From Malacoraja senta (taxonomy: Eukaryota): 64,000 nucleotides of DNA. The notes beneath the pieces were generated by a model. That model worked only from the letters and a program-made list of their open reading frames with translations, had not been told where the DNA came from and did no database searches. Position 1 is the first letter of the stretch. Each line of letters starts with the position of its first letter. The stretch lies in NCBI GenBank assembly GCA_038087875.1, contig CM075993.1, forward strand, positions 3,722,001 to 3,786,000, given 5' to 3'. The translations under genes were made by a program, and so were the position numbers. Positions 1,537-62,812 of this stretch are shown in pieces.

Positions 1537-1701
1537 ACGTCTTGCTGAAAATGCATTCAGTCGGGATCTGTGGCTCTGATGTCCATTTTTGGCAAAATGG
1601 AAGAATTGGAGATTTTATTTTGAGGAAACCAATGGTCCTGGGGCATGAAGCCTCAGGAACTGTGTTTAAAGTGGGATCTGGAGTCCAACATCTTAAACCA
1701 G
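1537..1701 (+). CDS. SORD: SORD-like copy A, coding exon equivalent to SORD exon 3 (165 bp)
   Basis: tttcag| acceptor, |gtcagt donor. Translates [55 protein letters not shown], with the catalytic Zn ligands (GICGSD, GHE). Exons 1-2 not found, presumed upstream of the window. Confidence 0.95.
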
Positions 1702-1759
1702 GTCAGTCACTAATCCAATAAGTATTATTATGACTTGGCAGATGCCAATGTGTGTGAAG

Positions 1760-1944
1760 ATAGACACAAAAAGCTGGAGTAACTCAGCAGGACAGGCAGC
1801 ATCTCTGGGGAGTAGGAATGGGTGATGTTTCAGGTCGAGACCCTTCTTCAATCTGAAGAAGGGCCTCAACACGAAATGTCGGCCATTCCTTCTCTCCAGA
1901 GATGCTGCCTGTCCTGCTGAGTTACTCCAGCTTTTTGTGTCTAT
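1760..1944. repeat. About 185-bp foldback made of two inverted Penelope-like terminal repeats, in copy A intron 3
   Basis: ATAGACACAAAAAGCTGGAGTAACTCAGCAGGACAGGCAGCATCTCTGG has its exact reverse complement ending at 1944. Confidence 0.88.
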
Positions 1945-2033
1945 TGAGGTAATTTGCTCAGGGTATGATTCACACGGTATATCGCTATATTGATGTGTTT
2001 ACATTATGTGATCCAGCATTATCTCTACTACAG

Positions 2034-2193
2034 GTGACAGAGTTGCCATTGAACCGGGGGTCCCAAGGGAAAATGATGAGCATTGCAGAACTGGACGATA
2101 CAACCTCTCCCCGTCAATTTTCTTCTCTGCAACTCCTCCTGATGATGGACAACTTTGCCAATACAACTTGCACAATGCCAACTATTGCTACAA
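2034..2193 (+). CDS. SORD: SORD-like copy A, exon 4 (160 bp)
   Basis: ctacag|...|gtgagt. [53 protein letters not shown]; phase matches flanking exons. Confidence 0.95.
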
Positions 2194-2947
2194 GTGAGTT
2201 ATATGTTGAGCAATGATCCTGGCAGTTTCACTCAGTAGGATGGAATGTTCAACTACTCCCATACGTGAATGCTGTAATCTTTTGCAATATCTAAAATTTT
2301 CATCTGATCGAATTCCTATTTATCCCACCAAGTAATAAGGAAATGGGAATTCGGGTGTGAATGATCAGCTTTTATTGTGCTCTTCTTAAAATAGTGCACC
2401 TTGCACGCATATCTGAGTTTAATGTAATTCTGTTTTCAAAGCTACCTGAGATGATGTGTCCTGAATAAACAATAGATCTTTATTAAAAAGGCAGCAGCAT
2501 GAATTGCAGTACCACCATATTTTCCAGTATAATGTGGCAAGTTCTAAGATTGCGTACTATTTCTGGAGCTTGTGTGCATCTTCATTGCAGCAGTGTAAAT
2601 TATCGAAGACTGGGAGGTGGGAGTGGGAGATGAATGCATCTCCGTTGCATCTATTCTGAATATGCTACCTTCTACTCAGTGCTTCTGATGTATCTTCCTT
2701 TTTATTCAACAGTGGTGTCCCCTCCACTATATGTAGGTCAGTGCAAGCTAGAGGAATACCACATCGTCTTTCAAACTGGCACATGTCAAGTTCAACAATC
2801 TTAGATAATCATCCATTCATGTCTCCTATCTCATATTTCCAGCAATCACATTTTCTTTCTCCTCTCCTGGCATTTTAGATTTTAATCATCTCCTCTAGAC
2901 ATATCTTAAACACCTTCCTTTCAAGAGACCAAGTGTTGGTGGGGTGG

Positions 2948-3548
2948 GGTGGTTCTACTGCAGTTGTACAGGGTCTTGGTGAGACCACACCTGGAGTATT
3001 GCGTACAGTTTTGGTCTCCTAATCTGAGGAAAGACATTCTTGCCATAGAGGGAGTACAGAGAAGGTTCACCAGACTGATTCCTGGGATGGCAGGACTTTC
3101 ATATGAAGAAAGACTGGATAGACTCGGCTTGTACACGCTAGAATTTAGAAAATTGAGGGGGGATCTTATAGAAACTTACAAAATTCTTAAGGGGTTGGAC
3201 AGACTAGATGCAGGAATATTATTCCCGATGTTGGGGAAGTCCAGAACTAGGGGTCACAGTTTAAGGATAAGAGGAAAGTCTTTTAGGACCGAGATGAGAA
3301 AATCATTTTTTACACAGAGAGTGGTGAATCTGTGGAATTCTCTGCCACAGAAGGTAGTTGAGGCCAGTTCATTGGCTATATTTAAGAGGGAGTTAGATGT
3401 GGCCCTTGTGGCTAAAGGGATCAGGGGGTATGGAGAGAAGGCAGGGATGGGATACTGAGTTGGATGATCAGCCATGATCATATTGAATTGCGGTGCAGGC
3501 TCGAAGGGCCGAATGGCCTACTCCTGCACCTATTTTCTATGTTTCTAT
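2948..3548 (+). mobile_element. CR1 LINE 3' fragment
   Basis: LYRVLVRPHLEYCVQFWSP...RVVNLWNSLP; near-identical to the 3' end of 55793-58914. Confidence 0.9.
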
Positions 3549-4206
3549 CATGGTGGGGGGGGGGGGGGGGGAGGGGAGGAACTAAATTCAATTCCATTCC
3601 TCCAAGAAACAGGGTGAGTGAGTTTGACCCAAATAAATAATGCAAATCTTGGGCGTTATTATTTTCCCTCAAGAATAAAGACATTTCATTTATGTGGTGT
3701 CCTTCGTCATCACCAGATGCACCAAATTATGTATAGCCATTCAGTTTGCTCACAACAAGTCAATCACCGAGCAATATAATAAAGATAACCTGCTTTTACC
3801 TAGCAATGTAAGAAAATCCAATTTTTGTTTAATACAGTTATCTTGCATTGTTTTAAAACCCACTTTGCTTTAAAACCACGGAGAAATGGAGGTTAATGTT
3901 GTATTTCAGAAATTGGTGTCCAATCACAGAAACACCTATTAGAGTTGAGATGGTGAGTTCATTGTGCAATTTTCCATCCAGGATATATGAGGTCTGTCCA
4001 AAGATCTGGTCTGGATACTTATTGAATGAAGCACAATTTCTTAAATCGGGGTACTGATTGTGGATGATCAGCCATGATCACATTGAATGGCGATGCTGGC
4101 TCGAAGGGCCGAATGGTCTACTCCTGCACCTATTGTTTATTGTCTATTGCTCTGTTTCAGTCATGGTCATCTTTTGACAGGAAACTTTTATATTTACTCG
4201 TTTCAG

Positions 4207-4325
4207 GCTCCCTGAATCTGTGAGCTTTGAGGAAGGTGCCTTAATTGAACCTCTTTCCGTTGCTATTCATACCTGCCGCAGAGGAGGAGTAACAATTGGT
4301 AGCCACGTTTTTATATTGGGAGCAG
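4207..4325 (+). CDS. SORD: SORD-like copy A, exon 5 (119 bp)
   Basis: tttcag|...|gtaagc. [40 protein letters not shown]. Confidence 0.95.
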
Positions 4326-5542
4326 GTAAGCAGTTAATTGTTTTAGTTTAGTTTAGAGATATAGCATGGAAACAGGCCCTTCAGCCCACCAAGTCCACAC
4401 CAACTAACGATCACCCGTACACTAGTTCTATCCTACACACTAGGGATAATTTACAGAAGCCAATTAACCTACAAACCTGCACGTCCTCGGAATGTGGGAG
4501 GAAACCCACGTGGTCGCAAGGAGAACGTTCAAGCTCCATACAGACAGCACCCGTAGTTGGGAACCAATCCATCCCTCTGCCACTGTAAGACGACAAATCT
4601 ATCGCTGCTCCACTGTGCTGCCCCAGTATAATTACGTAAGAGATTATTAACATTCTTGGTGTTTCAGTTCCTTTCTTGTCTAATTTTGTAATTTTATTTT
4701 GAAACCCCAGCATGAGTTAGTTGGCACAATCAGATGTTTGGTTATCTGCTTCACTGAATATTTGGTGCCTCCCAAATTGTCACTGTGTGTTACTCTGTAG
4801 GGGTATAATCTTTTGTTACTTGCATGTGTGAAGGCCAAAATCAATACAAACTAAACTTTACATAGCTCGTATTCCTATATTTCATCAAATGGAAGTAATT
4901 CTTTCTTTGTTTATGGCAATTTTAGGCAAGGGAACATAGTGAGTTTTGGTCCCAGTCGGGATCATGAACCCACAGTCTAATCAGATGGTCACGTAATTCT
5001 TCACAGGAAATGTTGATCAGACTTTTCAGGTTGATGTTAATAATTCCCTTGGACACAAAGTGCTGGAGTAACTCAGCATCTCTCGAGAACATGGATAGGC
5101 GACATGTCAAGTCAAGACCCTTCTTCAGACTGATTGTAGGGGGGCAGGGAAAGAAAGCTGACAAGGGGAGAGGCAGGATATGGGTAATGGGTTGATATAG
5201 GCGAGGGTGGTTTGATTGGAACAAAGGCCAGAGATAAGAAGATGTGAGTTTGAAAAGTTGTGGATTGAGAAGCCAAGGGGGGTGGAAGATTGCCCAACCT
5301 TCACTTGTCCGCCGCCCTGTTATGACTAATGCAATCAACTCGACGTGCACAAAGGGAAGATTAAATAGAACAAGATGTCCTAAAACATTAGGCTGTGCAT
5401 GCCACACGGAAGAAGAAGTGAAGCCAAGGCAGGAGAGTGGGGGGGAAGTGGGAGGAGATTTGGAAGGAGAGAAATGTAGTCATTCGCCCTCTCCTGGCCA
5501 AATAAGTTTCTAACATGTCTTTCTTTTTTTTAATGTTTTAAG

Positions 5543-5608
5543 GAACAATTGGACTTGTGAATCTGCTTGTTTGCAAGGCCATGGGAGCATCTCAGATTTT
5601 GATCTGTG
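5543..5608 (+). CDS. SORD: SORD-like copy A, exon 6 (66 bp)
   Basis: tttaag|...|gtacgt. TIGLVNLLVCKAMGASQILICD completes the Rossmann GxGxxG motif. Confidence 0.93.
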
Positions 5609-5785
5609 GTACGTTGTTTGTCATAATTTGTAAAAGTACACAAGAAATTCTAGAACAAAAAATGCTTTTAACTCATTGTGTGCTCCTTTAAGAACCTATG
5701 TTCTTTTATTTTAATATATGCTATACAATTGTTTATGTAGTTGATTAAACTTTGACATGTGGGAGGAAACACATAACACATATAT

Positions 5786-6200
5786 ATCGCCCAACACCTC
5801 CGCTCAATTCGCAATAACCAACCTGATCTCCCGGTGGCTCAGCAATTCAACTCCCCCTCCCATTCGGAATCCAACCTTTCTGTCCTGGGCCTCCTCCATT
5901 TTCCAGAGTGAGGCCCACCGTAAATTGGAGGAGCAGCACCTCATATTTCGCTTGGGTAGTTTACACCCCAGCGGTATGAACATTGACTTCTCCAAATTCA
6001 GGTAGTCCTTGCTTTCTCCCCCCTTCCCAGCTCTCCCACAGCCCACTGTCTCCGCCTCTTCCTTTCTTCTGCCTGCCCATCCCCACATCAGTCTGAAGAA
6101 GTGTCTCGACCCGAGACGTCACCAATTCCTTCGCTCCGCTGAGTTTCTCCAGCATTTTTGTCTACCTTTGATTTTTCCACATCTGCAGTTCCTTCTTAAA
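5786..6200 (+). mobile_element. Penelope-like element 3' fragment
   Basis: KLEEQHLIFRLGSLHPSGMNIDFS plus the same terminal repeat. Further pieces at about 53856-54115 (+), 36404-36625 (-) and 43735-43920 (+). Confidence 0.82.
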
Positions 6201-7881
6201 CATAAGACGTATATTCGATATCTTTAAATGCCACTGTACTTTAGGTCGAGATTTACTGTCTCTGCTTCATGAAGATTAATTAATTCATTAATTTTACTTC
6301 CCTTGCATGCCTCTATCAAAGTTTTTCTACATAAAAATGGTGTAATTTTTCACCATCGTGTCTTTGTTACACCTGAGAAAAGCGAAACAATTAATTAGTC
6401 AAAGATTATTCCCACAACACATGACGTTGCTATTTCTGTGCATTATCGTCTTACTCAACCTATTATAATCCATCTTTAAATACTTAGTTTTTACTGTTCC
6501 TGTTTTATTTTTTAAGAGAGCAATGCTGCATCCTAATGCAGTACCTTGTATCTTTAGAAAACTAACAAAAGGGGGAACTGTGTGCTGGCATGCCAGTGGT
6601 TAAATAAACAATAACTGTTTATATAACAATAAGTGTGGCATCTGGGAGAATTGTGGAAGGCCCCCCTCGGTCATGACTGACCATGGGCGATGTATCCTGG
6701 TCGGATGCAAGCCTGGGCGATGTCATATGGAGGACAGGCTGTTGCCCATGCAGCACGTCCCCCCCTCTCCACGTCGCTGAGGGGCTCCGACTCCGGATTT
6801 TCTTGAGGTTTACTCCTGGAGCCTTTTCCATGACTGGATATGGCCACAAGGCAGTGGAGGTTTTAAATCAGAGTTTTCCCTCTCCTAGATGGACTGCCTT
6901 CCCAGGCTGACGAGCCCCATCTGCCTAGTGGAAGATAACTGGTGTAATTATAATCGCAAGCAAAGGCTTCCTCTCTCAATGAGAAAGGAAATGGAACAAT
7001 GAGACAATAATCTATTGTTCCATAGTCCCGACCAAAAATGTCACCTATCCACATTCTCCAGAGATGCTGCCTGACCTGCAGAGTTACTTCAGCACTCTGT
7101 GTCCTTTTATGTAAACCAGCATCTGCAGTTCCAAGTTTCTTTATTCAGCCATAAATATTGTAGCCTGAAATATTTTGCATTTGTCCTGAAAGGCAAATTA
7201 TACAGTGCCCTCCATAATGTTTGGAACAAAGACCCATCATTTATTTATTTGCCGCTGTACTCCACAATTTGAAATTTGTAATAGGAAAAAAATCACATGT
7301 GGTTAAAGTGCACATTGTCAGATTTTAATAAAAGCCATTTTTATACATTTTGGTTTCATCATGTAGAAATTACAGCAGTGTTATATACATAGTCTATAAT
7401 ACACAGGGCACCATAATGTTTGGGACAGCAATGTCATGTAAATGAAAGTAGTCATGTTTAGTATTTTGTTGCATATCCTTTGCATGCAATGACTGCTTGA
7501 AGTCTGCGATTCATGGACATCACCAGTTGCTGCGTTGGGTGTCTTCTCTGGTGATGCTCTTCCAGGCCTGTATTCAAGCCATCCTTAGCTTATGCTTGTT
7601 TTGGGGGATAGTCCCCTTCAGTTTTCTCTTCAGCATATAAAAGGCATGCTCAATTGGGTTCAGAGCGGGTGATTGACTTGGCCACTCAAGAATTGACAAT
7701 TTTTTAGCTTTGGAAAAACTCCTTTGTTGCTTTAGCAGTATGTTTGGGATCATTGACTTGCTGTAGAATGAACCGCCGGCCAATGAGTTTTGAGCCATTT
7801 GTTTGAACAGATAGGATGTGCCTATACATATCAGAATTCATTATGCTACTACCATCAGCAGTTGTATCATCAATGAAGATA

Positions 7882-10205
7882 CAGTGGCTTGCAAAAGTAT
7901 TCATACCCCTTGAACTTGAAATGTATTTTATTGGGATTTTATGTGATAGACCAACACAAAGTGGCGCATAATTGTGAAGTGGAAGGAAAATGATACATGG
8001 TTTTCAAATTTTTTTACAAATAAAAAACTGAAAAGTGCCACGTGCAAAGGTATTCAGCCCCCCCTGAGTCAATACTTTGTAGAACCACCTTTCGCTACAA
8101 TTACAGCTGCAAGTCTTTTGGGGGTATGTCTCTACCAGCTTTGCACATCTAGGGACTGAAAATTTTGCCCATTCTTCTTTGCAAAACAGCTCAAGCTCAG
8201 TCAGATTGGATGGAGAGCGTCTGTAAACAGCAATTTTCAAGTCTTGCCAGAGATTCTCAATTGGATTTAGGTCTGGACTTTGACTGGGCCATTCTAACAC
8301 ATGAATATGCTTTGATCTAAACCATTCTATTGTAGCTCTGGCTGTATGTTTAGGGATCGTTGTCCTGCTGGAAGGTGAACCTCCGCCTCAGTCTCAAGTC
8401 TTTTGCAGACTCTAACAGGTATTCTTCCAAGATTGCCCTGTATTTGGCTCCATCCATCTTCCCATCAACTCTGACCAGCTTCCCTGTCCCTGCTGAAGAA
8501 AAGCATCCCCACAGCATGATGCTGCCACCACCATGTTTCACAGTGGGGATAATAATAATAATAATACATTTTATTTATGGGCACCTATACAAAAGTCACA
8601 AGGACACCTTACAAAATTTAACAAAGAAACATATAATCAGAGTAAAATAAGTTATAAAGTCATCACCAATACACAAATTAAAGACAGAAATTCGATCCAA
8701 AAAACAACAACAAAAAATTCAGAAACAATGTGAAGAGAGAGCAGCGGCAGCCAAACCGTGCCAGCGTCCACTCTCCCTTCCGACCGCCATCTTGGACACA
8801 GACTAACATAGACAGTACACACAAAAATCATCCCCCCACAATGGTTACCACTGTGGGGGAAGGCACAATGTCCAGTCCCCAACCCCAGTTCTCCCCAACG
8901 TCAGGCCTATTGAGGCCTCCGCTATTGCCTCTACGGAGCTCACCGGAGCTCCAGCGCGTCGATCCAACGCGGCGACCCAGGCAAGGCATCGCCCGCTCCG
9001 CGAAAGCGCTCCAGCGCTGTGTCGCCACCGAAGCCAAGGTGCTGGGCGGTCCCCGTCAGGAAACGGCGCTCCATGCCCACTGGTAGGCCACGAGGATGGG
9101 TCGACGGGGCAGCCCGGAGAAAAAGCTGCCTCACCGACCAGGTAGGGACCTAGAACATATTTACCCCCATTCACCCTACATTTAAAAAGTAGATTACTCC
9201 AACGGACGAGACACTGGACACACTGAAACTATAAAAAAAAGTGAATTAATCGGACGGCTGCTGCTTAGCATCCGTTCCCCAACATGGCTCCTCATTCAGG
9301 GTGATGTGCAGTGTTAGGTTTCCGCAACACATAGCGTTTTGAATTTAGGCCAAAAACTTCAATTTTGGTCTCATCTGACCAGAGCACCTTCCTCCACATG
9401 TTTGCTGTGTCCCCCACATGGCTTGTGGCAAACTGCAAACGGGACTTCTTATGGGGTTTTTTCAACAATGGCTTTCTTCTTGCCACTCTTCCATAAAGGC
9501 CCGATTTGTGGAGTGCACGACTAATAGTTGTCCTGTGGACAGATTCTCCCACCTGAGCTGTGGATCTCTGCAGCTCCTCCAGAGTTACCATGGGCCTCTT
9601 GGCTGCTTCTCTGATCAATGCTCTCCTTGCCCGGCCTGTCAGTTTAGGTGGACGGCCATGTCTTGGTAGGTTTGCAGTTGTGCCATACTCTTTCCATTTT
9701 CGGATGATGGATTGAACAGTGCTCCGTGAGATGTTCAAAGCTTGGGATATTTGTTTATAACCTAACCCTGCTTTAAACTTCTCCACAACTTTATCCCTGA
9801 CCTGTCTGGTGTGTTCCTTGGGCTTCATGATGCTGTTTGTTCACTAATGTTCTCTAACAAACCTCTGAGGCCTTCACAGAACAGCTGTATTTATACTGAG
9901 ATTAGATTACACACAAGTGGACTCTATTTACTAATTAGGTGACTTCTGAAGGCAATTGGTTGCACTGGATTTTATTTAGGGGTATCAGAGTTAAGGGGGC
10001 TGAATACTTTTGCACGCGACACTTTTCAGTTTTTTATTTGTAAAAAAATTTGAAAACCATGTATCATTTTCCTTCCACTTCACAATTATGCGCCACTTTG
10101 TGTTGGTCTATCACATAAAATCCCAATAAAATACATTTATATTTGGTTGTAACGTGACAAAATGTGGAAAAGTTCAAGGGGTATGAATACTTTTGCAAGC
10201 CACTG
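7882..10205 (-). mobile_element. Second copy of the Passport-like Tc1, disrupted, inserted in the older Tc1
   Basis: TA duplication at 7880-7881 and 10206-10207. ORF pieces 9292-9828, 8350-8541 and 8004-8300 nearly identical to 17852-18871. Small deletion in one TIR; C-terminal frameshift. Confidence 0.93.
8551..9294 (-). mobile_element. Unclassified non-coding retroposon-like insertion with (TTA)n tail inside the Tc1 transposase
   Basis: Interrupts transposase sequence between cagtggggat and ttcagggtg, with loss of 6 bp. Homologous copy at about 42726-43255. Confidence 0.75.
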
Positions 10206-10822
10206 TAAGTGAGCCAGTACCTTCAACAGCCATACATGCCCAGGCCATAACAACCCCCACCACCATGTTTCACAGATGACGTGGTATGTAGTAGCCATGA
10301 AAATCTGTCACTACAGTATGCTTTGGATCTTGGGCAGTTCCTTCTCTCCTCCATAATTTGCTCTTGCCATCACTCTGATATGTTAATCTTTGTCTCATCT
10401 GTCCACAAAACATTTTTTCCAGACTGTGGTTGCTCTTTAAAGTACTTCTTGATAAACTGTAACCTGGCCATCATACATTTGCGGCTAACCAGTGGTTTGC
10501 ATCTTGCAGTGTTGCCTCTGTATTTCTGTTCATGAAGTCTTCTGCGGACAGTGGTCATTGACAAATCTACACCTGACTCCTGAAGAGTGTTTCTGATCTG
10601 TCGGATATGTGTTTGGGAATTTTTCTTTATTATAGGGAGAATTCTTCTGTCATCAGTTTAAACACTAATTTCTACATGGTGAAACCAAAATGTATAAAAA
10701 TACCCTTTAATGAAATCTGACAATGTGCACTTTAACCACATGTGATTTTTTTTCTATTACAAATCTCAAATTGTGGAGTACGGAGGCAAATAAATAAATG
10801 ATGGGTCTTTGTCCCAAACATT

Positions 10823-11310
10823 CAGATTCAGATTCAGAAAACTTTATTGTCTGTCATAACAGAAAATCTTCTTTGGTGTGGTTCAACATACAAACAGGAC
10901 AATGTACTGATAAGCAGTCATACAACACAGATTTCTGCGAGCACACACCGTGTGTATAGATCTTAAAAGCAAGTATAAGGATTAAAAACTGTAAAAATAG
11001 ACAAGATGAAAGTTGTGGATACGTGTAAAGTGACAATGCGTCGGGGTTAATTTGTCCATTGTTCATTTTTTATTTAAGCTGTTTATGGCAATGGGTATGA
11101 ATGAGTTTTTGTGGATGTTTTTCTTAGATAGGGGGACTTTATATCGGCGGCCTGATGGCAGAAGTTGGAAGGACTTGTGCAGGGGGTGGGTGGGATCCTG
11201 TGTAATGAGGTTGGCTTTCCTTTTAACTGCCTGGGTGTGAAGTACTGATAATTGATTTTGAGTTTTGCCAGTTATTTTGCTTGTTTGATTGATAATCCGG
11301 GAAAGCTTTG
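10823..11310 (-). mobile_element. LINE 3' fragment (Rex/L2-like) with (CTGAAT)n tail, inserted in the outer Tc1 TIR
   Basis: ttcagattcagattcag...tttattg is the reverse of a polyA signal plus tandem tail; splits the TIR. Confidence 0.6.
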
Positions 11311-11380
11311 ATTATGGAGGGCACTTGTAAGGCTTTCCCAGATGTAACCCTGGTAAACGAAACGGGCTGCTCTATTACAG

Positions 11381-11562
11381 ATCTGTCACTAAACCGACTG
11401 AAAAGGGCAAAGCAGATGGGAGCTAATTTCACCATTGCTGTAGAGAAAAACACAAGTGCCAAGGAACTGAGCCAAAAAGTGAAGGAAGCTCTTGGTGGAG
11501 CAATGCCTGATATATCTATTGAGTGCACTGGGGCAGAATTATGTATCCAAGCAGGTATTCAT
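11381..11562 (+). CDS. SORD: SORD-like copy A, exon 7 (182 bp; 2 codons longer than copy B)
   Basis: ttacag|...|gtgagt. LSLNRLKRAKQMGANFTIAVEKNTSAKELSQKVKEALGGAMPDISIECTGAELCIQAGIH. Confidence 0.93.
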
Positions 11563-12474
11563 GTGAGTACCACTGAGTATTAAATTACCTATGTAATTTT
11601 AAAGAAAATTATCTCAATGAATGTGGTCAAGGTGCAATATAAAATATGGAACAGTAGGTGGACACAGTTGTTTAGCTAGCTTAGCAGCTGAGCTGAAGAC
11701 GGCACACCCCTTTTGTAAGCTGTCAGTTGCTGACCTCAAGAGTTCAGGGATGATCTTGCCACGTTGAAAAAGGTCAATTCAGCCATTTCCTACCAGATTT
11801 CCAAACAAGAACTGCTCATAAGTCACCCCCCCACCCCCCACACACACACCCCAGGTTGCTATGATATAGATTGCAAAGATGATATGAACATATTCTGTGA
11901 AATAATAGCATTCCAATGACAGCATCAAAGCTCGTTTATTTTAATGCTTGTTATTAATTCTGAAGATGTAGATGCTACTGGCCTTTTACCCTTCCTTTAT
12001 GTCCGTGAGAAAGTAGCTAGCTTCTTCCTTCTAATAATTTCTTTATAACCAACCCTTCACAGTTTGCTAAATCTACACAGATTTATGTCCCAAATTACTA
12101 AGTTTTTGAATCTACGTGGTATATTCTAGATCACTGACGTGAAAATGAGCCCAGAATTGGCAAGCCATCTTCTTGTTCTTTCAGTCACAATCCTGCATCC
12201 ATTTGATGCACTCCTACCTAATCTAACGCTAACATTTTGTTTGAGGAAACAGTTGGGTAATTTTGTAATATTTCTGTATCCCTTATACAAGAAATTAAAA
12301 AAGCATGATTTGTAATAGATTTTCATAAGGTTTGAATTTGAATAAACTTTTCTGTTATGGAATCATCTTGAATATAGCTGCATACTTTGGAAGAATTTTG
12401 GCACAAATTGTAATGACTACTGAAAATTTGAATGAAGATTTTAATTGATCAAATGTATTTGCTTGCTTTCTCAG

Positions 12475-12596
12475 GCAACAAAGTCTGGCGGCGTTTTCGT
12501 TATGGTTGGTTTGGGCAAACCTTTTGCAAATATTCCAATGTTAGAAGTGGGAATTCGGGAGATAGATATCCGTGGGGTATTCCGATATTGCAACAC
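12475..12596 (+). CDS. SORD: SORD-like copy A, exon 8 (122 bp)
   Basis: tctcag|...|gtaagt. [41 protein letters not shown]. Confidence 0.95.
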
Positions 12597-14583
12597 GTAA
12601 GTATTAAATAACAATTCATACATTCCATAGTTTCAATAGGTTTACAATGGAGAATTCTCCTGTGCTTCATTTAATTCACATAACTTCACCATGTTCCAAA
12701 AGTTACATTTGCCAACCAGAAGAAAGTTTCAGATGTGTAATTTCTTCAGCATTTTTGATCTGACAAACTCTAGTTGATAAATAAAAAGATTAATACAAAT
12801 AGTCATGTAACTACCTTAGAATTGTTTGCACTAGCCCTATTTGCAATAAATTTAGAGCTGACTTAAAATGCCTTTCATCATTTAGAGTTTTGCGTGGAAC
12901 TTGCTGATACACGCCCTTCGGCCCAACTTGCCCATGCTGACATTGTCGCCCCATCTACGCTAGTCTCACCTGCCCGCATTCGGGCCATCTTTAAACCTTC
13001 CGATCCATGTTCCTGTCCAAGTGTCTTTTTTATCCTTTGTCTCTTAGTTTTACATCAAAGCTGTCTAATGAAATGGATTAGACAGCGCCAGAGGGAGGGG
13101 TAAAGATGAATATAGTCAAGAGAGAGAAGTTCAGAAGAGAGAATGGGACAGAAGTGTGTGTGTTGATAGAGTGGAATGAAGGAGGAAGAGAGAAGGAATG
13201 GGCGAAACATAAGGATGGAGTTAATGCTTGGGTTATGTTTGTGCATCAAGTTTTGATGTTCTGAGGTTTAGAGATGCAGCATGGAAACAAGCCCTTCGGT
13301 CCACCGAGTCTGCGCTGACCATCGATTCACACTAGTTTTATGCTATCCCATCCTACACACTAGGGACAATTTACAGAAGCCCATTAACTTAAAAACTTAC
13401 ACATCTTTGAAATGTTTAGACTTCAGATTTTACAGTGTGGAAACAGACCCACAGTTGTTTTTTGCAGACTGGTGGTCAATGTGGTGTGAGGATAAATGCT
13501 TGGACTAACTTTCTCAATCTGTATTAGTGACTCTGGATATGCATCTCACTGAGTGCTTCACTTCCGTAGCTGTCAAACAGATTGATATTTTTGCAGCAGT
13601 TTGAATTAATTTTTACATTTGTAGACAACACAGCTTGGAAACATAGTAAACAGAATAAATAGATTGCAAGTAAACAAAATGAGCCCGCAAGTTACAGAGA
13701 AATGTAACACATACTGTAGAAGTGTGAAGTGATACTCATGGTAAAAGCTTAGGGAAAGGAAGTATCAACTAATTGGCACAATGACCTGGTGTATAAGTGG
13801 ATAAGTCCTTGAAAGTGCCAAATTGGGAAAGCAGATGGGATCTTGGGATTCATAAATAGCGACACTGAGTACAAACTCAAGTAAATTATATTAAACCTGT
13901 AAAATAAACATTGGTTACATCACAACCAAAGTGTGGTATCCAAAACTTATCAGTTAACTGTCAGAAGGATGTGATAGTCATAGAGAGGGTGGGAAGATTA
14001 TGATTTTTTTAAGGCAGTGGATATGTTATTAGTAAGCAAGAGGGTGAAAGGCAGGAGTTGAGATCACAAGTAGACCTGCTACATGATTTGTATGCTTGAT
14101 TTTAAGGATGAAGTATTTACTGTAAGAGTGAAGAACAGGACTTCACTGTTCTTTACTGAAGAACAGGACTAACTGGTTCTCTTAGTGACGTGCTTCTAGC
14201 CATAGGCATGACTTCAAACAGAAGCTTACTGTCAGTATGATTTGAAGACTGGCAAGTTGAAGATTTTAATTTAACAATAGCTTTGCACCTGAATTGAAAG
14301 AAAATTGGCTCATGGGCTAAATGAACAACGATTCTAGGAAATCACCCATTTGTCCTAAACTTTCTTTTGCGTGATGCCATTTTCTTAAACCAAATGTGAA
14401 ATACTTTGGAAGTCTTTTTTTTGTGTTGCTTTTATTGAAGGCCCTCTGTATCTGTTGTTATTTCATTGTGAAGATAATCTGTAGTTCAAGTGTGATAAAT
14501 GGAAAATAATCAAGATGAAATAATCTCTCCACGGCAATGTGAAGTTATACATTGTTCTCTTTCCTTGGTTCTTATTGACCTAG

Positions 14584-14749
14584 GTGGCCTGTGGCAATTG
14601 ACATGTTGGCTTCAAAGAGGATTGATGTGAAGTCTCTGGTCACTCATCGCTTTCCCTTGGAAGAAGCTATCAAAGCTTTTGAAACAACAAAGGAAGGTGT
14701 GGGAATCAAGATTATGCTGAAATGTGATTCCAGCGACCAGAATCCCTGA
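14584..14749 (+). CDS. SORD: SORD-like copy A, terminal exon 9 to TGA
   Basis: acctag| acceptor. [54 protein letters not shown], a canonical SORD-type C-terminus. Confidence 0.95.
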
Positions 14750-22000: not shown

Positions 22001-22493
22001 CAATACATTTCTCCTTAAACAAGGACACCTACCTGCCCTTTGGTTTCCCATGTGTAAAAGTGATACAGAAATGTGATGAGACGCAAGAAGCGAACTGCTG
22101 GATAACTCAGCTGGCCAGGAGGCATCTGTGACGGAAAAGGATAAATAATGTTACAGGTGGGATCCACCTCCAGTTTGAGTGGATGCACATGGACTGAAGC
22201 TGAGTCCCGACCGAAATGCCATCGGTCCATGTCACTCCACAGATGCTGCCTGACCCACCGAGTTCCTTCAGCAGTTTGTTGCTTGCACAGAAATGTGACC
22301 AATGAACCTATGTATTGCAATAATAAATAGAATTAGTAAATAGAACAGCAAGTTCTCCAAATAGAGGCAAAGTTTGCCCAATATTGACAGAGTGATTGAT
22401 CAGTAGGATAACTGCTTTTAAACTTTCCTGAACAAGGCTACAGTCTTACAGAGGACTATTGATTACCTTTGATTGCAGACCGTGAAGCTGGAA

Positions 22494-22550
22494 ATGGCGC
22501 AGCAAGAGAATCTGTCAGTTGTGCTCCACGCAGCGGGAGATTTGAGACTG
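22494..22550 (+). CDS. SORD: SORD-like copy B, first coding exon (57 bp)
   Basis: gaaATGG Kozak context; MAQQENLSVVLHAAGDLRL then |gtaact donor, matching the SORD N-terminus (NLSLVVHGPGDLRL). Confidence 0.9.
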
Positions 22551-25770: not shown

Positions 25771-25852
25771 TCTCAGCACCGAGACATGCTCTGTATCAGA
25801 AGCTCTTTGGATACTTCGGCTGTGGTAATATGTAATGGACCTCTCCTTTCAG

Positions 25853-45667: not shown

Positions 45668-46449
45668 TTGGGTCGAAACCCTTCTTCAGTTCTGACCCGA
45701 AACATCACCTATTCCTTTTCTCCAGAGATGCTGCCTTACCCGCTGAGTTACTCCACCACTTTGTGACATTGGAAACTGCATGCATTAAACCTCAATAGTT
45801 GTTAATGTGACACTGACAGATTAAATTGCAGTCACTTCATACTTTACTTTTTACAAGTGTGTAGTGTGTGCTGCATATTGATGATATTTGACACTACAGT
45901 AAACCTTTGATAATCTGGCATGCCAATAATTTTGGTGGGAGATTGGACTGTCTGACCTGCTGAGTTACTCCAGCATTTTGTGTCTATCTTCATAAACCAG
46001 CATCTGCAGTTCCTTCCTACACATACAGACTTTTTTTTTTTTACCAGTGGATGTTATTTCTATCAAAGACAGACACAAAATGCTGGAGTAACTCAGCGGG
46101 TCAGGTTGCATCTCTGGAGAAAATGGACAATTGATGTTCTGGGTCTGACCCTTCTTCAGAAGTCTGAAGAAAGGTCCCAACCCAAAACAAAGTCAGTCTG
46201 AAGAACGATCCCGACCCGAAACATCTCCCATTCCTTCTCTCCAGAGATGCTGCCTGTTCTGCTAAGTTCCTCCAGCATTTTGTGTCTATCTTCAGTGTAA
46301 ACCAGCATCTGCAGTTCCTTCCTACACATGTGGACACTGGAAACTGAACACAGAACAGTTCTGAACGTTGAACCACATGTTTCCCTTGACCTTGGTCCTG
46401 TTACCTTTTCCCCATTCTCTTTAATTGGATTGTTGTGGGACATGGTTTC

Positions 46450-50833: not shown

Positions 50834-52104
50834 CAGAAGCGTCCACGTCGCGGCGGCTGGAAACTGGAAGTATCCTGAACTAATTCTGCTACCACCATCA
50901 TCTATTGAGACAAGTGATGGCGTCCACTGATTGTCGCCCTTTTCAGGACGGACGATGACAGTGAGGCCAACATTTGTAAAATGGACACAAAAAGAAGAAG
51001 AAGACAACTTCGGTTACATGGTGTGACCAAGCTTAATGTCCATAATTACTGGGCAAACAGATTCAGTCCCATCTTTCTGAAGGGAATTGGGAAAGTACTT
51101 GTTGAGAGAAAAATTCCAAGGCTATGGGGCAAGAGCAGGAGTCTGAGACATCGGACAGCTCTTTCAAAAATGCATTGTGGACTAAAATGTTTCATCAACT
51201 GTGAGATATTATGATAAGGTGTCCAGACTTGGAAATTCCCCGGGAAGGCCTGGGGGCAGACAGGTTCGCAGCCACAAAAGAGGCTTATATGATGAAATGG
51301 AATGAGGATGCTTAAGAGGACAAAAATATCTCATTATTATACTTTATTAGCCAAGTATGTTTTGCAACACATGAGGAATTTGATTTGCCGTACAGTCATA
51401 CCAATAAAAAGCAACAAGACACACAAAATACATTTTAACATAAACATCCACCACAGTGACTCCTCCACATTCCTCACTGTGATGGAAGGCAAAAAAAAGG
51501 TCAAAAAGGTCAAAAAAGGTCAAAAAAGGAAAAAAAATCTCTTCTTCTTTGTTCTCCTGCGGTCAGGGGCCTCGAGCCTTCTGTTGACAGGATGATCTTG
51601 GCTCCCGTAGCCGGCGGCGTTCGGGCTCTCCACATCGGGGCAATCAAACTCTTGCATCGGGGGGGGGGGGGAAGTGTCAACTCCCCACGCCGGGCGATCA
51701 GACCCCGGGTGGGGGCTAGTCAAACCTTCTGCGTCGTTGGAGTTTCCCGACTACCCGAGACTGTGAGCTCCTCGACGTTGAAATCCGCAGGCCATGGTTG
51801 GAGTGTCGATCCCAGGCAAGGGATCGCAGGCTCCGATGGTAAGACCACGCCCCCGCGGTGGGGCTCAAAGTCAGTCTCGAGCAAGGCCTCCCACTCCATC
51901 GATGGTAGGCCGCAGAGCGACCGGAGATATGATCCGGAAAACAATCGCATCTCCGGTAAGGTAAGAGATTGAAAAAAAGTTCCTCCCCACCCCCCCACAT
52001 AAAACAAACTAGAGAACATTAACACAAACTTTTAAAACACACTAAAATTAACAAAAAAAAAGACAAAAGTACAGACAGACTGTTGGCGAGGCTGCCATCG
52101 TGCG

Positions 52105-52118
52105 GCGCCCCCTGGTGG
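52105..52118 (-). promoter_or_regulatory. Consensus CTCF core motif
   Basis: The reverse complement reads CCACCAGGGGGCGC. Confidence 0.45.
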
Positions 52119-55792: not shown

Positions 55793-58700
55793 AACATAGA
55801 AACATAGAAAATAGGTGCAGGAGTAGTCCATTCGGCCCTTCGCGCCTGCACCGCCATTCGATATGATCATGGCTGATCATCCTACTCAGTATCCTGTACC
55901 TGCTTTCTCTCCATACCCCCTAATCCCTTTAGCCACAAGGGCCACATCTAACTCCCTCTTAAATATAGCCAATGAACTGGCCTCAACTACCTTCTGTGGC
56001 AGAGAATTCCAGAGATTCACCACTCTCTGTGTGAAAAATGTTTTCCTCATCTCCGTCATAAAAGATTTCCCCCTTATCCTTAAACTGTGACCCCTTGTTC
56101 CCCAACATCGGGAACAATCTTCCTGCATCTAGCCTGTCCAACCCTTTAAGAATTTTGTACGTTTCTATAAGATCCCCCCTCAATCTTCTAAATTCTAGCG
56201 AGTACAAACCGAGTCTATCCAGTCTTGCTTCATATGAAAGTTCTGACATCCCAGGAATCAGTCTGGTGAACCTTCTCTGCACTCCCTCTATGGCAAGAAT
56301 GTCTTTCCTCAGATTAGGAGACCAAAACTGTACGCAATACTCCAGGTGTGGTCTCACCAAGACCCTGTACAACTGCAGTAGAACCTCCCTGCTCCTATAC
56401 TCAAATCCTCTTGCTATGAATGCGAACATACCATTCGCTTTCTTCACTGCCTGCTGCACCTGCATGCCTACTTTCAATGACTGGTGTACCATGACACCCA
56501 GGTCTCGTTGCATCTCCCCTTTTCCTAATCGGCCACCATTCAGATAATAGTCTACTTTCCTGTTTTTGCCACCAAAGTGGATAACCTCACATTTATCCAC
56601 ATTATACTGCATCTGCCATGCATTTGCCCACTCACCCAGCCTATCCGTCACCTTGCAGCCTCCAAGCATCCTAGCTAACACTGCCCCCCAGCTTCGTGTC
56701 ATCCGCAAACTTGGAGATGTTGCATTCAATTCCCTCATCCAAATCATTAATATATATCATAAATAGCTGGGGTCCCAGCACTGAGCCTTGCGGTACCCCA
56801 CTAGTCACTGCCTGCCATTGTGAAAAGGACCTGTTTACTCCTACTCTTTGCTTCCTGTCTGCCAGCCAGTTCTCTATCCACATCAATACTGAACCCCCAA
56901 TACCGTGTGCTTTAAGTTTGTATACTAATCTCTTATGTGGGACCTTGTCGAAAGCCTTCTGAAAGTCCAGATATAACACATCCACTGGTTCTCCCTTATC
57001 CACTCTACTAGTTACATCCTCGAAAAATTCTATAAGATTCGTCAGACATGATTTACCTTTCATAAATCCATGCTGACTTTGTCCAATGATTTCACCACTT
57101 TCCAAATGTGCTGCTATCCCATCTTTAATAACTGATTCTAGCAGTTTCCCCACTACCGACGTTAGACTAACTGGTCTGTAATTCCCCGTTTTCTCTCTCC
57201 CTCCCTTTTTAAAAAGTGGGGTTACATTAGCTACCCTCCAATCCTCAGGAACTACTCCAGAATCTAAAGAGTTTTGAAAAATTATCACTAATGCATCCAC
57301 TATTTCTGGGGCTACTTCCTTAAGTACTCTGGGATGCAGCCTATCTGGCCCTGGGGATTTATTGGCCTTTAATCCATTCAATTTATCTAACACCACTTCC
57401 CAGCTAACCTGGATTTCACTCAGTTCCTCCATCTCATTTGACCCCAGGTCCCCTGCTATTTCCGGCAAATTATTTATGTCTTCCTTAGTGAAGACAGAAC
57501 CAAAGTAGTTATTCAATTGGTCTACCATGTCCTTGTTCCCCATGATCAATTCACCTGTTTCTGACTGCAAGGGACCTACATTTGTTTTAACTAATCTTTT
57601 TCTCTTCACATATCTATAATAGCTTTTGCAGTCAGTTTTTATGTTCCCTGCCAGTTTTCTTTCATAATCTATTTTCCCTTTCCTAATTAAGCCCTCTGTC
57701 CTCCTCTGCTGGACTCTGAATTTCTCCCAGTCCTCTGGTAGGCTGCTTTTTCTGGCTAATTTGTACGCTTCATCTTTTGTTTTGATACTATCCCTGATTT
57801 CCCTTGTTATCCATGGATGCACTACCTTCCCTGATTTATATTTTTGCCGAACTGGGATGAACAATTGTTGTAGTTCATCCATGCAGTCTTTAAATGCCTT
57901 CCATTGCATATCTACCGTCAACCCATTAAGAATCAATTGCCAGTCTATCTTGGCCAATTCACTTCTCATACCCTCAAAGTTACCTTTCTTTAAGTTCAGG
58001 ACCCTTGTTTCTGAATTAACAATGTCACTCTCCATCCTAATGAAGAACTCAACCATATTATGGTCACTCTTGCCCAAGGGGCCACGCACAACAAGACCGC
58101 TAACTAACCCTTCCTCATTACTCAATACCCAATCTAGAATAGCCTGCTCTCTCGTTGGTTCCTCTGCATGTTGGTTTAGAAAACTATCCCGCATACATTC
58201 CAAGAAATCCTCTTCCTCAGCACCCTTGCCAATTTGATTCACCCAATCTATATGTAGATTGAAGTCACCCATTATAACTGTTTTACCTTTGTTGCACGCA
58301 TTTCTAATTTCCTGTTTGATGCCATCCCCAACTTCACTACTACTGTTAGGTGGCCTGTACACAACTCCCACTAGCGTTTTCTGCCCCTTAGTGTTTCGCA
58401 GCTCTACCCATATCGATTCCACATCCTCCAAGCTAATGTCCTTCCTTTCTATTGCGTTAATCTGCTCTCTAACCAGCAACGCTACCCCACCTCCTTTCCC
58501 TTTCTGTCTATCCCTCCTGAATATTGAATATCCCTGGATGTTCAGCTCCCAGCCTTGGTTACCCTGGAGCCATGTCTCCGTGATCCCAACTATATCATAA
58601 TCATTAATAGCTATCAGCACATTCAACTCATCCACCTTATTACGAATGCTCCTTGCATTGAGACACAAAGCCTTCAGGCTTGTTTTTACAACACTCTTAC

Positions 58701-58914
58701 CCCTTATACAATTATGTTGAAAAGTGGCCCTTTTTGATTTTTACCCTGGATTTGTCTGCCTGCCACTTTTACTTTTCACCTTGCTACCTATTGCTTCTAT
58801 CCTCATTTTACACTCCTCTGTCTCTACGCTCACACATTTAAGAAACCCTTTCCCTTTAACTCCATCCTCAACTATCCCATTCGACACCCCACCCCCCTTA
58901 TTCAGTTTATCTGT
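55793..58914 (-). mobile_element. Young 5'-truncated CR1 LINE with near-complete but frameshifted ORF2
   Basis: ORF 56671-58668 ([40 protein letters not shown]), continued in other frames to 55886. (GTTTCTAT)n tail; flanked by duplicated TTATTACAATAGA. Confidence 0.93.
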
Positions 58915-59400: not shown

Positions 59401-60894
59401 ATTTATTGTGTATATATGGTCTCTGGTCTATAGGCACACTGAACTTTTATCTCCCGTTTTGTATTATGTTTACATATTCTGTTGTGCTGCAGCAAGTAAG
59501 AATTTCATTGACCTATCTGGGACACATGATAATAAAGCTCTCATGACTCTTGACTCTCAATCAAGCAGGAGCAGCAATCAAGGCAAATGGTATGTTGGCC
59601 ATTGGAACAAGCGGAGTTGAGGACAGCAGCAGAGATGTCTTTCCACAGTGAGACCACGCCTGGACTATATCGTGTGCCGTGGTGGTCTCTGCACCTAAGA
59701 AAGATTTATCTGTCAGGCTTTCCCTGTTAAGATTTAAAGTCCACTGAAGATTCACCAGACTGATTTCTGTGTGAGGAGGTATCAAACCAACTAAGATTGT
59801 ATTCACTCGAGTTTAGAAGAATGAGAAGGCTCTAACTGAAAGATTCTATCAGGGATAGACAGACTGGGTGAAGGGTGGTTGGAGTGCCTCGAATAAGGGA
59901 AGATAGTCTCGGGATTTGATTGATTGGATTGATGGAAAGATACAGTATGGAAACAGGCCCTTTGGCCCATCAAGTCCACACCCATTCCATGTTATCCCAC
60001 GTTTGCATCTACTCCCTACACACTAGGGACAATTTACAGACACCACTTAACCTACAAAAACCGCACACCTTTGGGATGTGGGAGAAAACCGACCCGGTTA
60101 CCTGGAGAACGGACAAACTCCACACAGACAGCACCCGGGGTGAGGATCGAACCTGGATCTCCGGCGCAGTGAGCCTGCATCCCTACCAGCTGTGCCACAA
60201 TCCTGCCTGGTACAGGGCAAGAGGTTTAGGACTGAGATAAGAAAACATTTCAACGATGGGGATGGTGATTGTGTGGAAGTTGGTACCAGGCAGGACGGTT
60301 GGGGCCAAGTCACCAAATAATTTTTAAGAAATAGATCAATACATTTCAAGATGCAATAAAAATCATGGGTTGGTATGTGAGAATATGGTCAGTCAAAGTT
60401 GCGTTAAATAGCGGTGCAGGCTCGATGGGCCGAATGGCCCGTGGCTTCAATCCAAAGAAGGGTCCCAACCCAAATCGTCACCTATCCATGTTCTCCAGAG
60501 ATGTTGCCTGAAACGCGGAGTTACTCCAGCATTTTTTTTTTGTAAACCAGCATCTGCAGTTCCTTGCTTCCACGCATCTCCTTCCATCCTTACACTGGCT
60601 ACCTTGCCTCCATGCACTCGGTTCTGATGCAGGATCTGAACCCGAACGTCGCCTATCCCCCTGTCTCCACAGATGCTGCCTGACCCGCTGAGTTCCTCCA
60701 GCAGTTTGTTGGCTGCTGCAGATCCCAGCATCAGCAGTCGGATGTGTCTCGACTTTACCCCCCCCCCATATCTGGCCTGTTTCTGCCTCAACCACTAACT
60801 CAGATGTTCTGGACACTGTCATTGCTCTTGGTGGGAACAGGCCACATGTAAATTGGCTGCTGAATTGTTTTATACTTTCCATATAAATATATTG

Positions 60895-61378
60895 ACTTGC
60901 TCTAGGTGTCAGCTGCTCTACATCGGTGAGACCAAGCGTAGGCTTGGCGATCGCTTCGCCCAACACCTCTGCTCGGTTCACAATAACCAACCTGATCTCC
61001 CGGTGGCCCAGCACTTCAACTCCCTCTCCCATTCTGAATCCAACCTTTCCGTCCAGGGCCTCCTCCATGGCCAGAGTGAGTCCCACCACAAATTGGAGGA
61101 GCAGCACCTCATATTTCGCTTGGGTAGCTTACACCCCAGCGGTATGAACATTGACTTCTCCAATTTCAGGTAGTCCCTGCTTCCTCCCTCCTTCCCCTCC
61201 CCTTCCCAGCTCTCCCACAACCCACTGTCTCCGCCTCTTCCTTTCTTCTTCTTCCCGCCCCATCCCCCCCTCCGACATCAGTCTGAAGAAAGGTCTCGAC
61301 CCGAAACGTCACCTATTCCTTTGCTCCATAGATGCTGCCTCACCCGCTGAGTTTCTCCAGCATTTGTGTCTACCTTTG
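60895..61378 (+). mobile_element. Penelope-like element 3' fragment: GIY-YIG endonuclease C-terminus plus terminal repeat
   Basis: CSRCQLLYIGETKRRLGDRFAQHL...VAQHFN...LEEQHLIFRLGSLHPSGMN, followed by CTGAAGAAAGGTCTCGACCCGAAACGTC. Confidence 0.85.
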
Positions 61379-62389
61379 ACTTGAACTTGTCATTGGAGAC
61401 CTCTGGAATACCTTTAATCAGACTTTATCTTGCACTAAATGTTGTGCCCTTCACGTGGACATTTGATTGTATTCATCTTTTGCATTTTCTTTCCTCTTTT
61501 CTTTACACTTTCTTTTTTTTCTTCTTTTTTTCATTCTTGTCTTTCTCTGGATGGCACGGATAACAAAAGCTTTGTGAAAAAGATTAAACTAAACTAATCC
61601 AAACTGCCGGGGTGAGATTTGAATATCTGCAGACCAGTAATCCAGCCTCCCAGCCATTACAATACCATAAAGCATTTTCTAAAATGCAAAGTAGACAAAA
61701 ATGCTGGAGAAACTCAGCGGGTGAGGCAGCATCTATGGAGGGAAGGAATGGGTGACGTTTTGGGTCGAGACCCAGACTTCTTCTAAAATGTTTTTTTTTT
61801 TACTGTACAATCAGCTAAAACCCATGCTAGACTGGGACTGCAACCGTACTACAAATGGAGTGGCGTATTGAAAGTGGGTTCACTGTGCCTCTAGGTCCAG
61901 CATACAAAGGACAATGGCTTCAGAAGCTTAGGGCAAGGGCAAGAAGAGTGACACAAGAAACCGCAGATGCTGGAAGCTTGAGCAAAGCACGGAGTGCTGG
62001 AGGAACTCAGCTGGTCGGGCAGCATCTATAAAGGGAATGGACTCCAGAAACTGAAGAAAGACCCCGTCCATTTCCCTCTGTGGACGCTTGCCTGGCCTGC
62101 TGAGTTCCTCCAGAGGAAAAAAAAACAGTGCTAGTTCATAGAAACATAGAAACATAGAAATTAGGTGCAGGAGTAGGCCATTCGGCCCTTCGAGCCTGCA
62201 CCGCCATTCAATATGATCATGGCTGAGCTGGTGGGAGCCATCCTTAGACAACCCAATTCCAATGGGATATGGTGGGGAAACAATTTTATTTGCCCAGCCA
62301 GTACCCAACTCTGGGAGCCTGGGTTGCTTTCTCTGGATGGAGGATGGGGGGTCTTGAGTAGGGATGGGGGTGGGGAGGGGCTATGTTGA

Positions 62390-62615
62390 GCTAATTGGTC
62401 AAACCCCCTGCTAAAGGGGGTATATATTCACCAATCATAGCCCAGCAGGATTGGACATACCCCCTAACAGACGTAACTATGGGAACCAATGACGCCTCCC
62501 CAACGTCTCAAACGTTGCCATGGGTGTTGTCTATGAGCTGAATACACTAAACCCCCTTGCTGGGGTTAACAAATCAAGTTATACGGTTGCTCTGGTGCAG
62601 GAAGGGCGGGCGTCT
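62390..62615 (+). promoter_or_regulatory. Putative promoter of copy C: four CCAAT boxes, two RFX X-box-like motifs, CRE-like half site, GC box
   Basis: ATTGG 62394 and 62450, CCAAT 62431 and 62486, GTAACTATGGGAAC 62473-62486, TGACG 62490, GTTGCCATGG 62514, GGGCGG 62604. All lie in apparently non-repetitive DNA 150-370 bp upstream of the ATG. Confidence 0.55.
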
Positions 62616-62761
62616 CATCAGCTGGAGGGAAAAGGGCAGAACACATCCTAGAGAGGGGGAACTAGTGGTTAAATTAGAGCTATTACAACTGCAACGGGGA
62701 TTGCAGCTCAAAATCCAGAACAGAAGTCCAAAGTAAAGAGGAAACTAACTTCAAACCAACC

Positions 62762-62812
62762 ATGTCGCAGGAGAATCTAGCGTTAGTCTTGGCCTGTGGA
62801 GAGCTGAAACTG
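62762..62812 (+). CDS. SORD: SORD-like copy C, putative first coding exon (51 bp); rest of gene expected beyond the window
   Basis: accATG start; MSQENLALVLACGELKL then |gtaatc at the same phase-0 position as copy B exon 1 (MAQQENLSVVLHAAGDLRL|gtaact). Confidence 0.78.

Follow-up and report, generated by a model that had tools for sequence, protein, structure and literature searches.

An ancient tandem SORD-like gene cluster in the skate Malacoraja senta with one paralogue carrying a remodelled substrate pocket

Two intact SORD-like genes and an exon-like stretch

The window analysed here is a 64,000-nucleotide stretch of the Malacoraja senta genome (GCA_038087875.1, contig CM075993.1, positions 3,722,001 to 3,786,000, forward strand). 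Searching its six frames with a full-length SORD profile yielded 15 exon matches, every one of them in either of two intact SORD paralogues on the same strand, A and B. The initial annotation had described three same-strand SORD-like units; A and B stand as intact genes, whereas the third unit, C, comes down to one 51-nt stretch resembling exon 1. The features are as follows.

1537..14749, + strand: paralogue A, SORD-like with a canonical pocket (open frame, splice sites, clade 100/100)
1537-1701, + strand: A exon 3 (AG/GT sites)
2034-2193, + strand: A exon 4 (AG/GT sites)
4207-4325, + strand: A exon 5 (AG/GT sites)
5543-5608, + strand: A exon 6 (AG/GT sites)
11381-11562, + strand: A exon 7 (AG/GT sites)
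12475-12596, + strand: A exon 8 (AG/GT sites)
14584-14749, + strand: A exon 9 (AG/GT sites)
22479..22550, + strand: B first coding exon, coding 22494-22550 (ATG at 22494, acceptor at 22479)
24137-24170, + strand: B exon 2, 34 nt (GC-AG donor; peptide identical to Rhinoraja B protein P0003)
25853-26017, + strand: B exon 3 (C44, H69, E70 kept; S46T, Y50F, I56G, G57A)
28952-29111, + strand: B exon 4 (F118A, A120G, T121L)
31106-31224, 32581-32646 and 34779-34954, + strand: B exons 5-7 (E155, GxGxxG, D203, R208 kept)
37721-37842 and 42242-42407, + strand: B exons 8-9 (F297, Y299 kept; R298K; stop TAG)
62762-62812, + strand: C, isolated SORD exon-1-like stretch, 17 codons, 51 nt (ATG to GT donor, profile score)

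Exons 1-2 of A lie upstream of the window start, and exons 3-9 form a single open frame of 325 amino acids ending in TGA. The protein is 95-96% identical to the A proteins of three other skates, and the best matches to exon 3 were SORD structures. B comprises nine coding exons (22494-42407) encoding 354 amino acids up to the TAG. The splice acceptor at 22479 implies an additional B exon upstream, which was not located, and the residues in frame before the ATG match N-terminal extensions of longer B isoforms in other skates. Both genes are free of stops and frameshifts, as the initial annotation had reported.

The A and B proteins share 68.7% identity. Their exon sizes, which we take to be those of human SORD, are equal except at exon 7 (182 versus 176 nt), where A carries an insertion of two codons. 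With a dN of 0.22 and a dS of ~1.0-1.1, dN/dS came to ~0.2 by four methods, a rough value because dS is near saturation; A versus B is under purifying selection. Comparing the A span with the rest of the window by blastn produced 250 HSPs, and those of at least 60 nt fell on exons 4, 6, 7 and 9 or resembled dispersed repeats. We saw no colinear intron block among these HSPs, which bears out the earlier remark that the introns are dissimilar apart from dispersed repeats.

Stretch C scored 12.2 bits (E 0.003) against an exon-1 profile, ranking second among 568 ATG..GT candidates, and its score was reached in 0/300 Markov-simulated 64-kb windows (best 10.8). The full-length profile, run in six frames, found no SORD exon with E below 2.5 in 42408-64000, and no further C exons were found in the last 1.2 kb of the window; remaining exons could lie beyond it, because this 1.2 kb is shorter than B intron 1 (1.6 kb). 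A search for a C protein orthologue with a 40-residue in-frame query ending in the exon returned a single candidate and nothing at E ≤10, a weak search because just 17 residues were informative. The C N-terminus was not found in a set of 438 proteins that took in the 150 best 50%-identity representatives, nor in 89 chondrichthyan-cluster proteins, among which the best matches were B-type (9/15 residues). The letters of C were found in one contig of run X6, maybe the window's own source; searches of runs X1, X2 and X5 against the C region returned no contig, and a run search with the last exon of A plus its 3′ flank returned 7 rows, 5 of them small shares, with no RNA holder listed, neither result bearing on expression. 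We rejected C as the first exon of a further class, D (see below), whose N-termini in skates differ from C. The stretch either opens a fourth paralogue that continues outside the window or is a relic; as a lone exon, aligned with a one-codon gap and lacking a protein match in these searches, it may be a relic.

The duplications predate the shark–ray split

Gene trees placed A, B and D in separate classes, each a starred clade containing both sharks and batoids (support for the A clade, 100/100). An origin after the shark–ray split, in batoids only, was rejected (AU p 8e-62). The SORD duplications are older than this split, and the earlier proposal of an old, retained expansion is upheld by the clades, the AU test and the A-B dN relative to dS. 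A, B, D and Callorhinchus grouped together against bony vertebrates in two trees (support 98/95 and 99/93); A, B and D are co-orthologues of vertebrate SORD, derived from a single gnathostome SORD. Neither Callorhinchus with D (AU p 0.11) nor Callorhinchus with B (AU p 0.16) was rejected, and duplications before or after the chimaera split both fit.

Both genes, A and B, are found on one chromosome-length record in Amblyraja, Leucoraja, Rhinoraja, Heptranchias, Mustelus, Hemitrygon and Mobula hypostoma, as well as in Hypanus. In three other skates, class D, absent from this window, is on a chromosome record of the same length; RefSeq accession order was treated as a hint only, not as gene order. 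Among the best 120 matches listed, no B-class protein came from orectolobiform or lamniform sharks or from Scyliorhinus. Logan contigs measuring 0.9-2.3 kb carry A and B orthologues with their exons joined, which implies spliced mRNA in related skates. RefSeq labels every copy 'SORD-like', and a literature search did not find a paper on an elasmobranch SORD cluster.

B keeps the catalytic residues and changes the pocket

The GroES-like and Rossmann domains of MDR zinc-dependent polyol dehydrogenases, the SORD family (PF08240 ADH_N and PF00107 ADH_zinc_N), scored above curated cut-offs in orthologues of A, B and D (P0248, P0238 and P0269). The catalytic zinc ligands C44, H69 and E70, together with E155, all named in PMC4404067, show no change in either window protein or in any A, B or D row. 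Of the features that select NAD+, D203 and the GxGxxG glycines G179/G181/G184 are kept in both window proteins, as is R208, with P182 replaced by T in each. In 10/10 B rows there is no substitution at the ligands, E155, D203, R208 or the GxGxxG glycines, and window B keeps F59, F297 and Y299. A search of the ESM Atlas returned generic SDH clusters only, and an AlphaFold model of a B orthologue was left out of the analysis at a mean pLDDT of 58.

We defined the pocket as the 19 active-site positions given in PMC4404067 and took as reference the consensus of 97 bony-vertebrate rows, 93 of which show 0-1 pocket differences. A keeps 18 of the 19, its sole change being Y50F, and class D changes 3-5. 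Window B keeps 11/19 and changes eight (S46T, Y50F, I56G, G57A, F118A, A120G, T121L, R298K), and the remaining nine B-class rows differ from the consensus at 6-9 positions. Y50F alone means little, because it also occurs in A, Callorhinchus and 3/97 bony rows. T121, A120 and R298 are invariant in 97/97 bony rows and altered in 10/10 B rows, with G120, L/I121 and K298 fixed in B across sharks and rays. Fixed B changes were enriched in the pocket (5/17 versus 10/173 conserved sites; Fisher p 0.005). Other pocket positions vary within the class: 56, 57, 116 and 118 are highly variable among B orthologues, with A, S, T or R at 118 and G, V, T, I or C at 56, and the B branch of myliobatiforms is long. 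The pocket variation is no less compatible with relaxed constraint than with a single fixed new substrate.

Changes at few positions can matter in this family. In a fungal relative, a single pocket change shifts sorbitol affinity ~5-fold (PMC2731777). Y42H/A112G/T113S (human Y50/A120/T121) separate grape L-idonate dehydrogenase from SDH, an assignment resting on modelling, not mutagenesis (PMC4404067). B carries F/G/L where the grape enzyme has H/G/S, sharing the glycine alone.

Proposed functions of A and B

The gene structures, age, purifying selection and residue states are shown by the results above; for catalysis we drew on the known SORD mechanism. A tandem duplication before the shark–ray split would have given rise to the retained classes A, B and D, leaving A, B and possibly exon 1 of a fourth copy in the window. 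A and B would each bind one catalytic zinc through C44/H69/E70, with a water held by E155, and bind NAD+ via D203; a 1,2-diol would be clamped on the zinc and its C2 oxidised to the ketone. A, retaining the pocket that would read the rest of the polyol chain, is predicted to be a working sorbitol/xylitol dehydrogenase, and its residues lend good support to a role in polyol metabolism. B would lack distal hydrogen-bonding groups (Y50F, T121L, R298K) and bulk (F118A, I56G, A120G), and therefore should bind sorbitol poorly and prefer a substrate whose tail differs. The likeliest candidates would be a vicinal diol with fewer hydroxyls or more bulk, and a polyol or aldonate in another configuration. 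Most likely B is a Zn/NAD+ diol or polyol dehydrogenase of shifted specificity. The diversified polyol-metabolism cluster proposed in the initial annotation is thus supported as to diversification, through the B pocket, and as to a polyol role for A; for B that role is presumptive. We think it probable that the pre-split tandem duplication, with at least three classes retained, was followed by neofunctionalisation of B towards a different preferred substrate.

Candidate substrates of B might include scymnol, an elasmobranch bile alcohol, through its polyhydroxylated side chain, or one of its precursors, an ascorbate/glucuronate sugar acid, or a deoxy-polyol. The accessible text of PMC10077225 lends no support to an osmolyte role. 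It is a speculative and rather doubtful extension that B is a vertebrate enzyme not described before, serving an elasmobranch-specific pathway and having acquired its specificity via the three pocket positions of the grape enzyme, and that C is a live fourth paralogue, giving a cluster of at least four specialised dehydrogenases.

A serious, if unlikely, competitor is subfunctionalisation or dosage, with all copies acting as sorbitol/xylitol dehydrogenases that differ mainly in tissue, stage or Km, and B as a low-affinity isoform. Window B does keep every catalytic and cofactor residue as well as F59, F297 and Y299, R298K and S46T are conservative, and SDHs are broad in specificity, plant Class II SDH retaining sorbitol turnover at high Km (PMC4404067); but the eight changes in the B pocket are concentrated there beyond chance and include three positions without exception in the 97 bony-vertebrate rows. 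That B, its pocket drifting, is retained as a structural or otherwise non-catalytic protein, such as a partner in hetero-tetramers or an abundant protein of some tissue, would accommodate the four variable positions and the long myliobatiform branch, but is very improbable given the invariant catalytic and cofactor residues in all B rows and the fixation of G120, L/I121 and K298. For A and B, the tree and AU test rule out a recent duplication confined to this species, pseudogenes and an assembly artefact, the last already judged unlikely at the outset, both genes being open, 31% diverged and represented by their own orthologues in sharks and rays; we give such an origin almost no credence.

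Comparison with known systems

To our knowledge, SORD is regarded as conserved and essentially single-copy across vertebrates. That sharks and rays alike have retained a tandem family in which one copy is canonical and one or two have rebuilt pockets suggests a metabolism peculiar to elasmobranchs. B also provides natural pocket variants at T121, A120 and R298, which may be useful for understanding polyol specificity. For now, the cluster is a modest but well-supported gene-family expansion.

The best PDB matches were to vertebrate SORD (EC 1.1.1.14; human 1PL6/1PL8, sheep 3QE3), and a B orthologue aligns with 1PL6 without gaps. The zinc ligands, E155 and D203 are common to A and B, and A shares nearly the whole pocket; the elasmobranch side differs in having at least three tandem paralogue classes, in the pocket changes of B and D, and in the two-codon exon 7 insertion of A. 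Grape L-idonate 5-dehydrogenase, a eudicot SDH Class II enzyme (PMC4404067), is likewise an SDH paralogue with altered specificity, a shift that in B is predicted. B alters the same three positions and shares the A-to-G replacement, but the plant enzyme arose independently and carries H and S at the two sites occupied by F and L/I in B, so that the B pocket is more hydrophobic, not more polar; B also changes F118 and R298. LAD shares the fold family, in which polyol preference shifts with small pocket changes, but neither window protein has a change at its signature sites F59 and F297, and B is therefore not LAD-like. The human SORD/SORD2P tandem pair is recent, with one copy a pseudogene. Tandem SORD duplication is common to both lineages, whereas the elasmobranch copies A and B are old, intact and conserved.

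Gene models of A, B and C

Models of the SORD (sorbitol dehydrogenase) paralogues A and B were built from exon-wise tblastn and inspection and then checked. Together with C, an isolated exon-1-like stretch, they are placed as follows.

1537-14749, + strand: A, exons 3-9, a single open frame of 325 aa
22494-42407, + strand: B, nine coding exons encoding 354 aa; the 34-nt exon 2 is followed by a GC donor
62762-62812, + strand: C, 17 codons running from an ATG to a phase-0 GT donor

The sequence comes from a skate. Against their counterparts in Amblyraja radiata, Leucoraja erinacea and Rhinoraja longicauda, protein identity is 95-96% for A and 91-93% for B, without an exact match. The non-canonical GC donor of B intron 2 lies at 24171, and the exon-2 peptide is also present in the Rhinoraja B protein. 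A stretch of A intron 2 (1216-1390, + strand) resembles the alternative first exon of A that RefSeq models in Amblyraja, Rhinoraja and Hemitrygon; in the window, its matching frame does not run on from the ATG, which speaks against a coding role for this alternative start.

A and B share 222 of 323 aligned residues (68.7%), with 73, 87 and 55% identity at the three codon positions, and four methods gave a dN of 0.21-0.23 and a dS of 0.96-1.13. Both are intact genes under purifying selection. When the A span was compared with the rest of the window by blastn (250 HSPs, those of at least 60 nt inspected), no colinear A-B intron block was seen, and the inspected HSPs fell on exons or were dispersed-repeat-like. 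The initial annotation had described intact genes lacking intron similarity beyond dispersed repeats, as we find, but its three gene units were only partly confirmed, since there are two genes plus one fragment, C: a full-length profile search of the window recovered no SORD exon beyond 42407.

C ranks second among 568 ATG..GT candidates against the exon-1 profile (12.2 bits, E 0.003), and its score was reached in 0 of 300 simulated windows. Read directly against the first exon of B, 11 of its 17 residues are identical, five of these being encoded by a different synonymous codon, and D to E and R to K are among the substitutions. This pattern suggests that C is an old coding paralogue and not a recent copy. 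Counting against a coding paralogue, C has no codon for the usual His, and protein searches found no protein matching it. We give a live fourth paralogue an even chance and a relic a slightly smaller one; a chance match is improbable. C differs from the first exon of class D, a third SORD paralogue class outside the window, and was rejected as that exon.

Other elements in the window

7197-10822: nested inverted-repeat elements, in the intron between A exons 6 and 7
17471-19091, + strand: Tc1/mariner element between A and B, with 222-nt inverted ends (95% complementary)
23895-24015, + strand: 40S ribosomal protein S20-like fragment in B intron 1 (E 1.5e-10)
46676-50833, + strand: Gypsy-type retroelement whose unbroken frame of 1385 codons encodes RT, RNase H and integrase domains
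55800-58740, - strand: LINE whose 689-codon frame carries endonuclease and RT domains

The S20-like fragment is probably a processed pseudogene. The Tc1/mariner element, with an uninterrupted transposase frame of 343 codons, looks recent; the same family recurs at 7880-10207, split by another repeat and within a second element with 157-nt arms. No matching LTR pair for the Gypsy-type element was found within 45800-52200, and shorter copies of the LINE are scattered across the window.

The duplications predate the shark-ray split

Spread was assessed from searches with B exon 3 (best 120 of 170 matches) and the Amblyraja B protein (best 120 of 7058), with cluster look-ups, which together revealed three SORD classes (A, B and D) in elasmobranchs. 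Among the matches listed, class A occurs in skates, sawfish, torpedo ray, stingrays and at least 10 shark species, class B in skates, stingrays, Mobula, Heptranchias and Mustelus, and class D in skates, sawfish, carpet sharks and Heterodontus. All three lie on equal-length records in Amblyraja, Leucoraja and Rhinoraja. In several species the accession numbers of A and B follow one another directly. Numbers absent from the listings fall between B and D in Leucoraja and, in Chiloscyllium punctatum, between D and A, a slight hint of further genes inside the cluster.

In both trees (LG+C20 with 48 rows; LG+G4 with 43), A, B and D each formed a starred clade holding sharks and batoids, and holding all batoid copies together was rejected (AU p 8e-62). 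The SORD duplications therefore predate the shark-ray split, about 250-300 million years ago. One Callorhinchus cluster lay outside the three clades (support 82/79 and 95/90), and its placement with D (AU p 0.11) or B (AU p 0.16) was not rejected; the duplications may have come before or after the chimaera split. Together with purifying selection, this old tandem origin bears out the retained expansion initially proposed. Exon-joined coding sequences of A and B orthologues occur in Logan contigs of 0.9-2.3 kb, which implies that these genes are transcribed and spliced in related skates.

RefSeq already lists these proteins as 'sorbitol dehydrogenase-like'. In the main texts of Creative Commons PMC and bioRxiv papers, we found none on SORD duplication in skates, elasmobranchs or cartilaginous fish; the expansion may be mentioned in gene-family tables of genome-paper supplements or in subscription papers.

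The active site of B is remodelled

Numbering follows human SORD (1PL6), fixed by gap-free alignment to a Leucoraja B protein. The 19 modelled active-site residues of PMC4404067 were converted by +8 using that paper's anchors, the last four by +6 via an F-R-Y match anchored on F297, named in PMC2731777. Among 97 bony-vertebrate reference rows (Myotis P0123 and mayfly P0190 excluded as aberrant), 69 had no difference from consensus at these sites, 24 had one, three had two and one had four.

The zinc ligands, E155, D203 and R208 are invariant in A, B and D. Window A is changed at one of the 19 sites (Y50F) and 12 other A rows at 0-2, whereas window B is changed at eight (S46T, Y50F, I56G, G57A, F118A, A120G, T121L and R298K) and nine other B rows at 6-9. 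Changes fixed in every B row concentrate in the pocket (5/17 versus 10/173 conserved sites, p 0.005), an enrichment absent from A (p 1.0) and D (p 0.53) in the same test. The eight D rows are changed at 3-5 of the 19 sites, with I56L, F118C and L274H in every one, and class D may represent a third specificity. The D proteins P0161, P0266, P0267, P0269 and P0168 carry their own fixed pocket changes, carpet-shark D additionally has S46T and F59A, and F118C is common to class D and Callorhinchus.

Proposed function and comparison with known dehydrogenases

A and B would both be Zn/NAD+ dehydrogenases that hold the C1/C2 hydroxyls on zinc and oxidize C2, with A an ordinary sorbitol/xylitol dehydrogenase. 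In B, the loss of distal hydrogen-bond donors and bulky walls makes it fairly probable that the preferred substrate is a different diol, polyol or sugar acid. Several points tell against this reading: the grape comparison is modelling-based, Y50F is found in A and Callorhinchus too, several B pocket sites vary between orthologues, and class B was absent for several shark orders among the matches listed (best 120 of 170 and of 7058). The main rival, that B is an isoform with low sorbitol affinity and its own expression pattern, seems to us unlikely.

The proposed preference of B for another substrate can be set beside published enzymes. The equivalents of S46, Y50, T121 and R298 hydrogen-bond distal polyol hydroxyls in simulations (PMC4337239), and in a fungal relative a single pocket change shifts the Km for sorbitol almost 5-fold (PMC2731777). 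Plant SDH Class I and the class that includes L-idonate dehydrogenase differ uniformly by Y42H, A112G and T113S (PMC4404067); these positions correspond to human Y50, A120 and T121, each of which is altered in 10 of 10 B rows, and at A120 the replacement by G is identical in B and in the plant L-idonate dehydrogenase class (PMC4404067).
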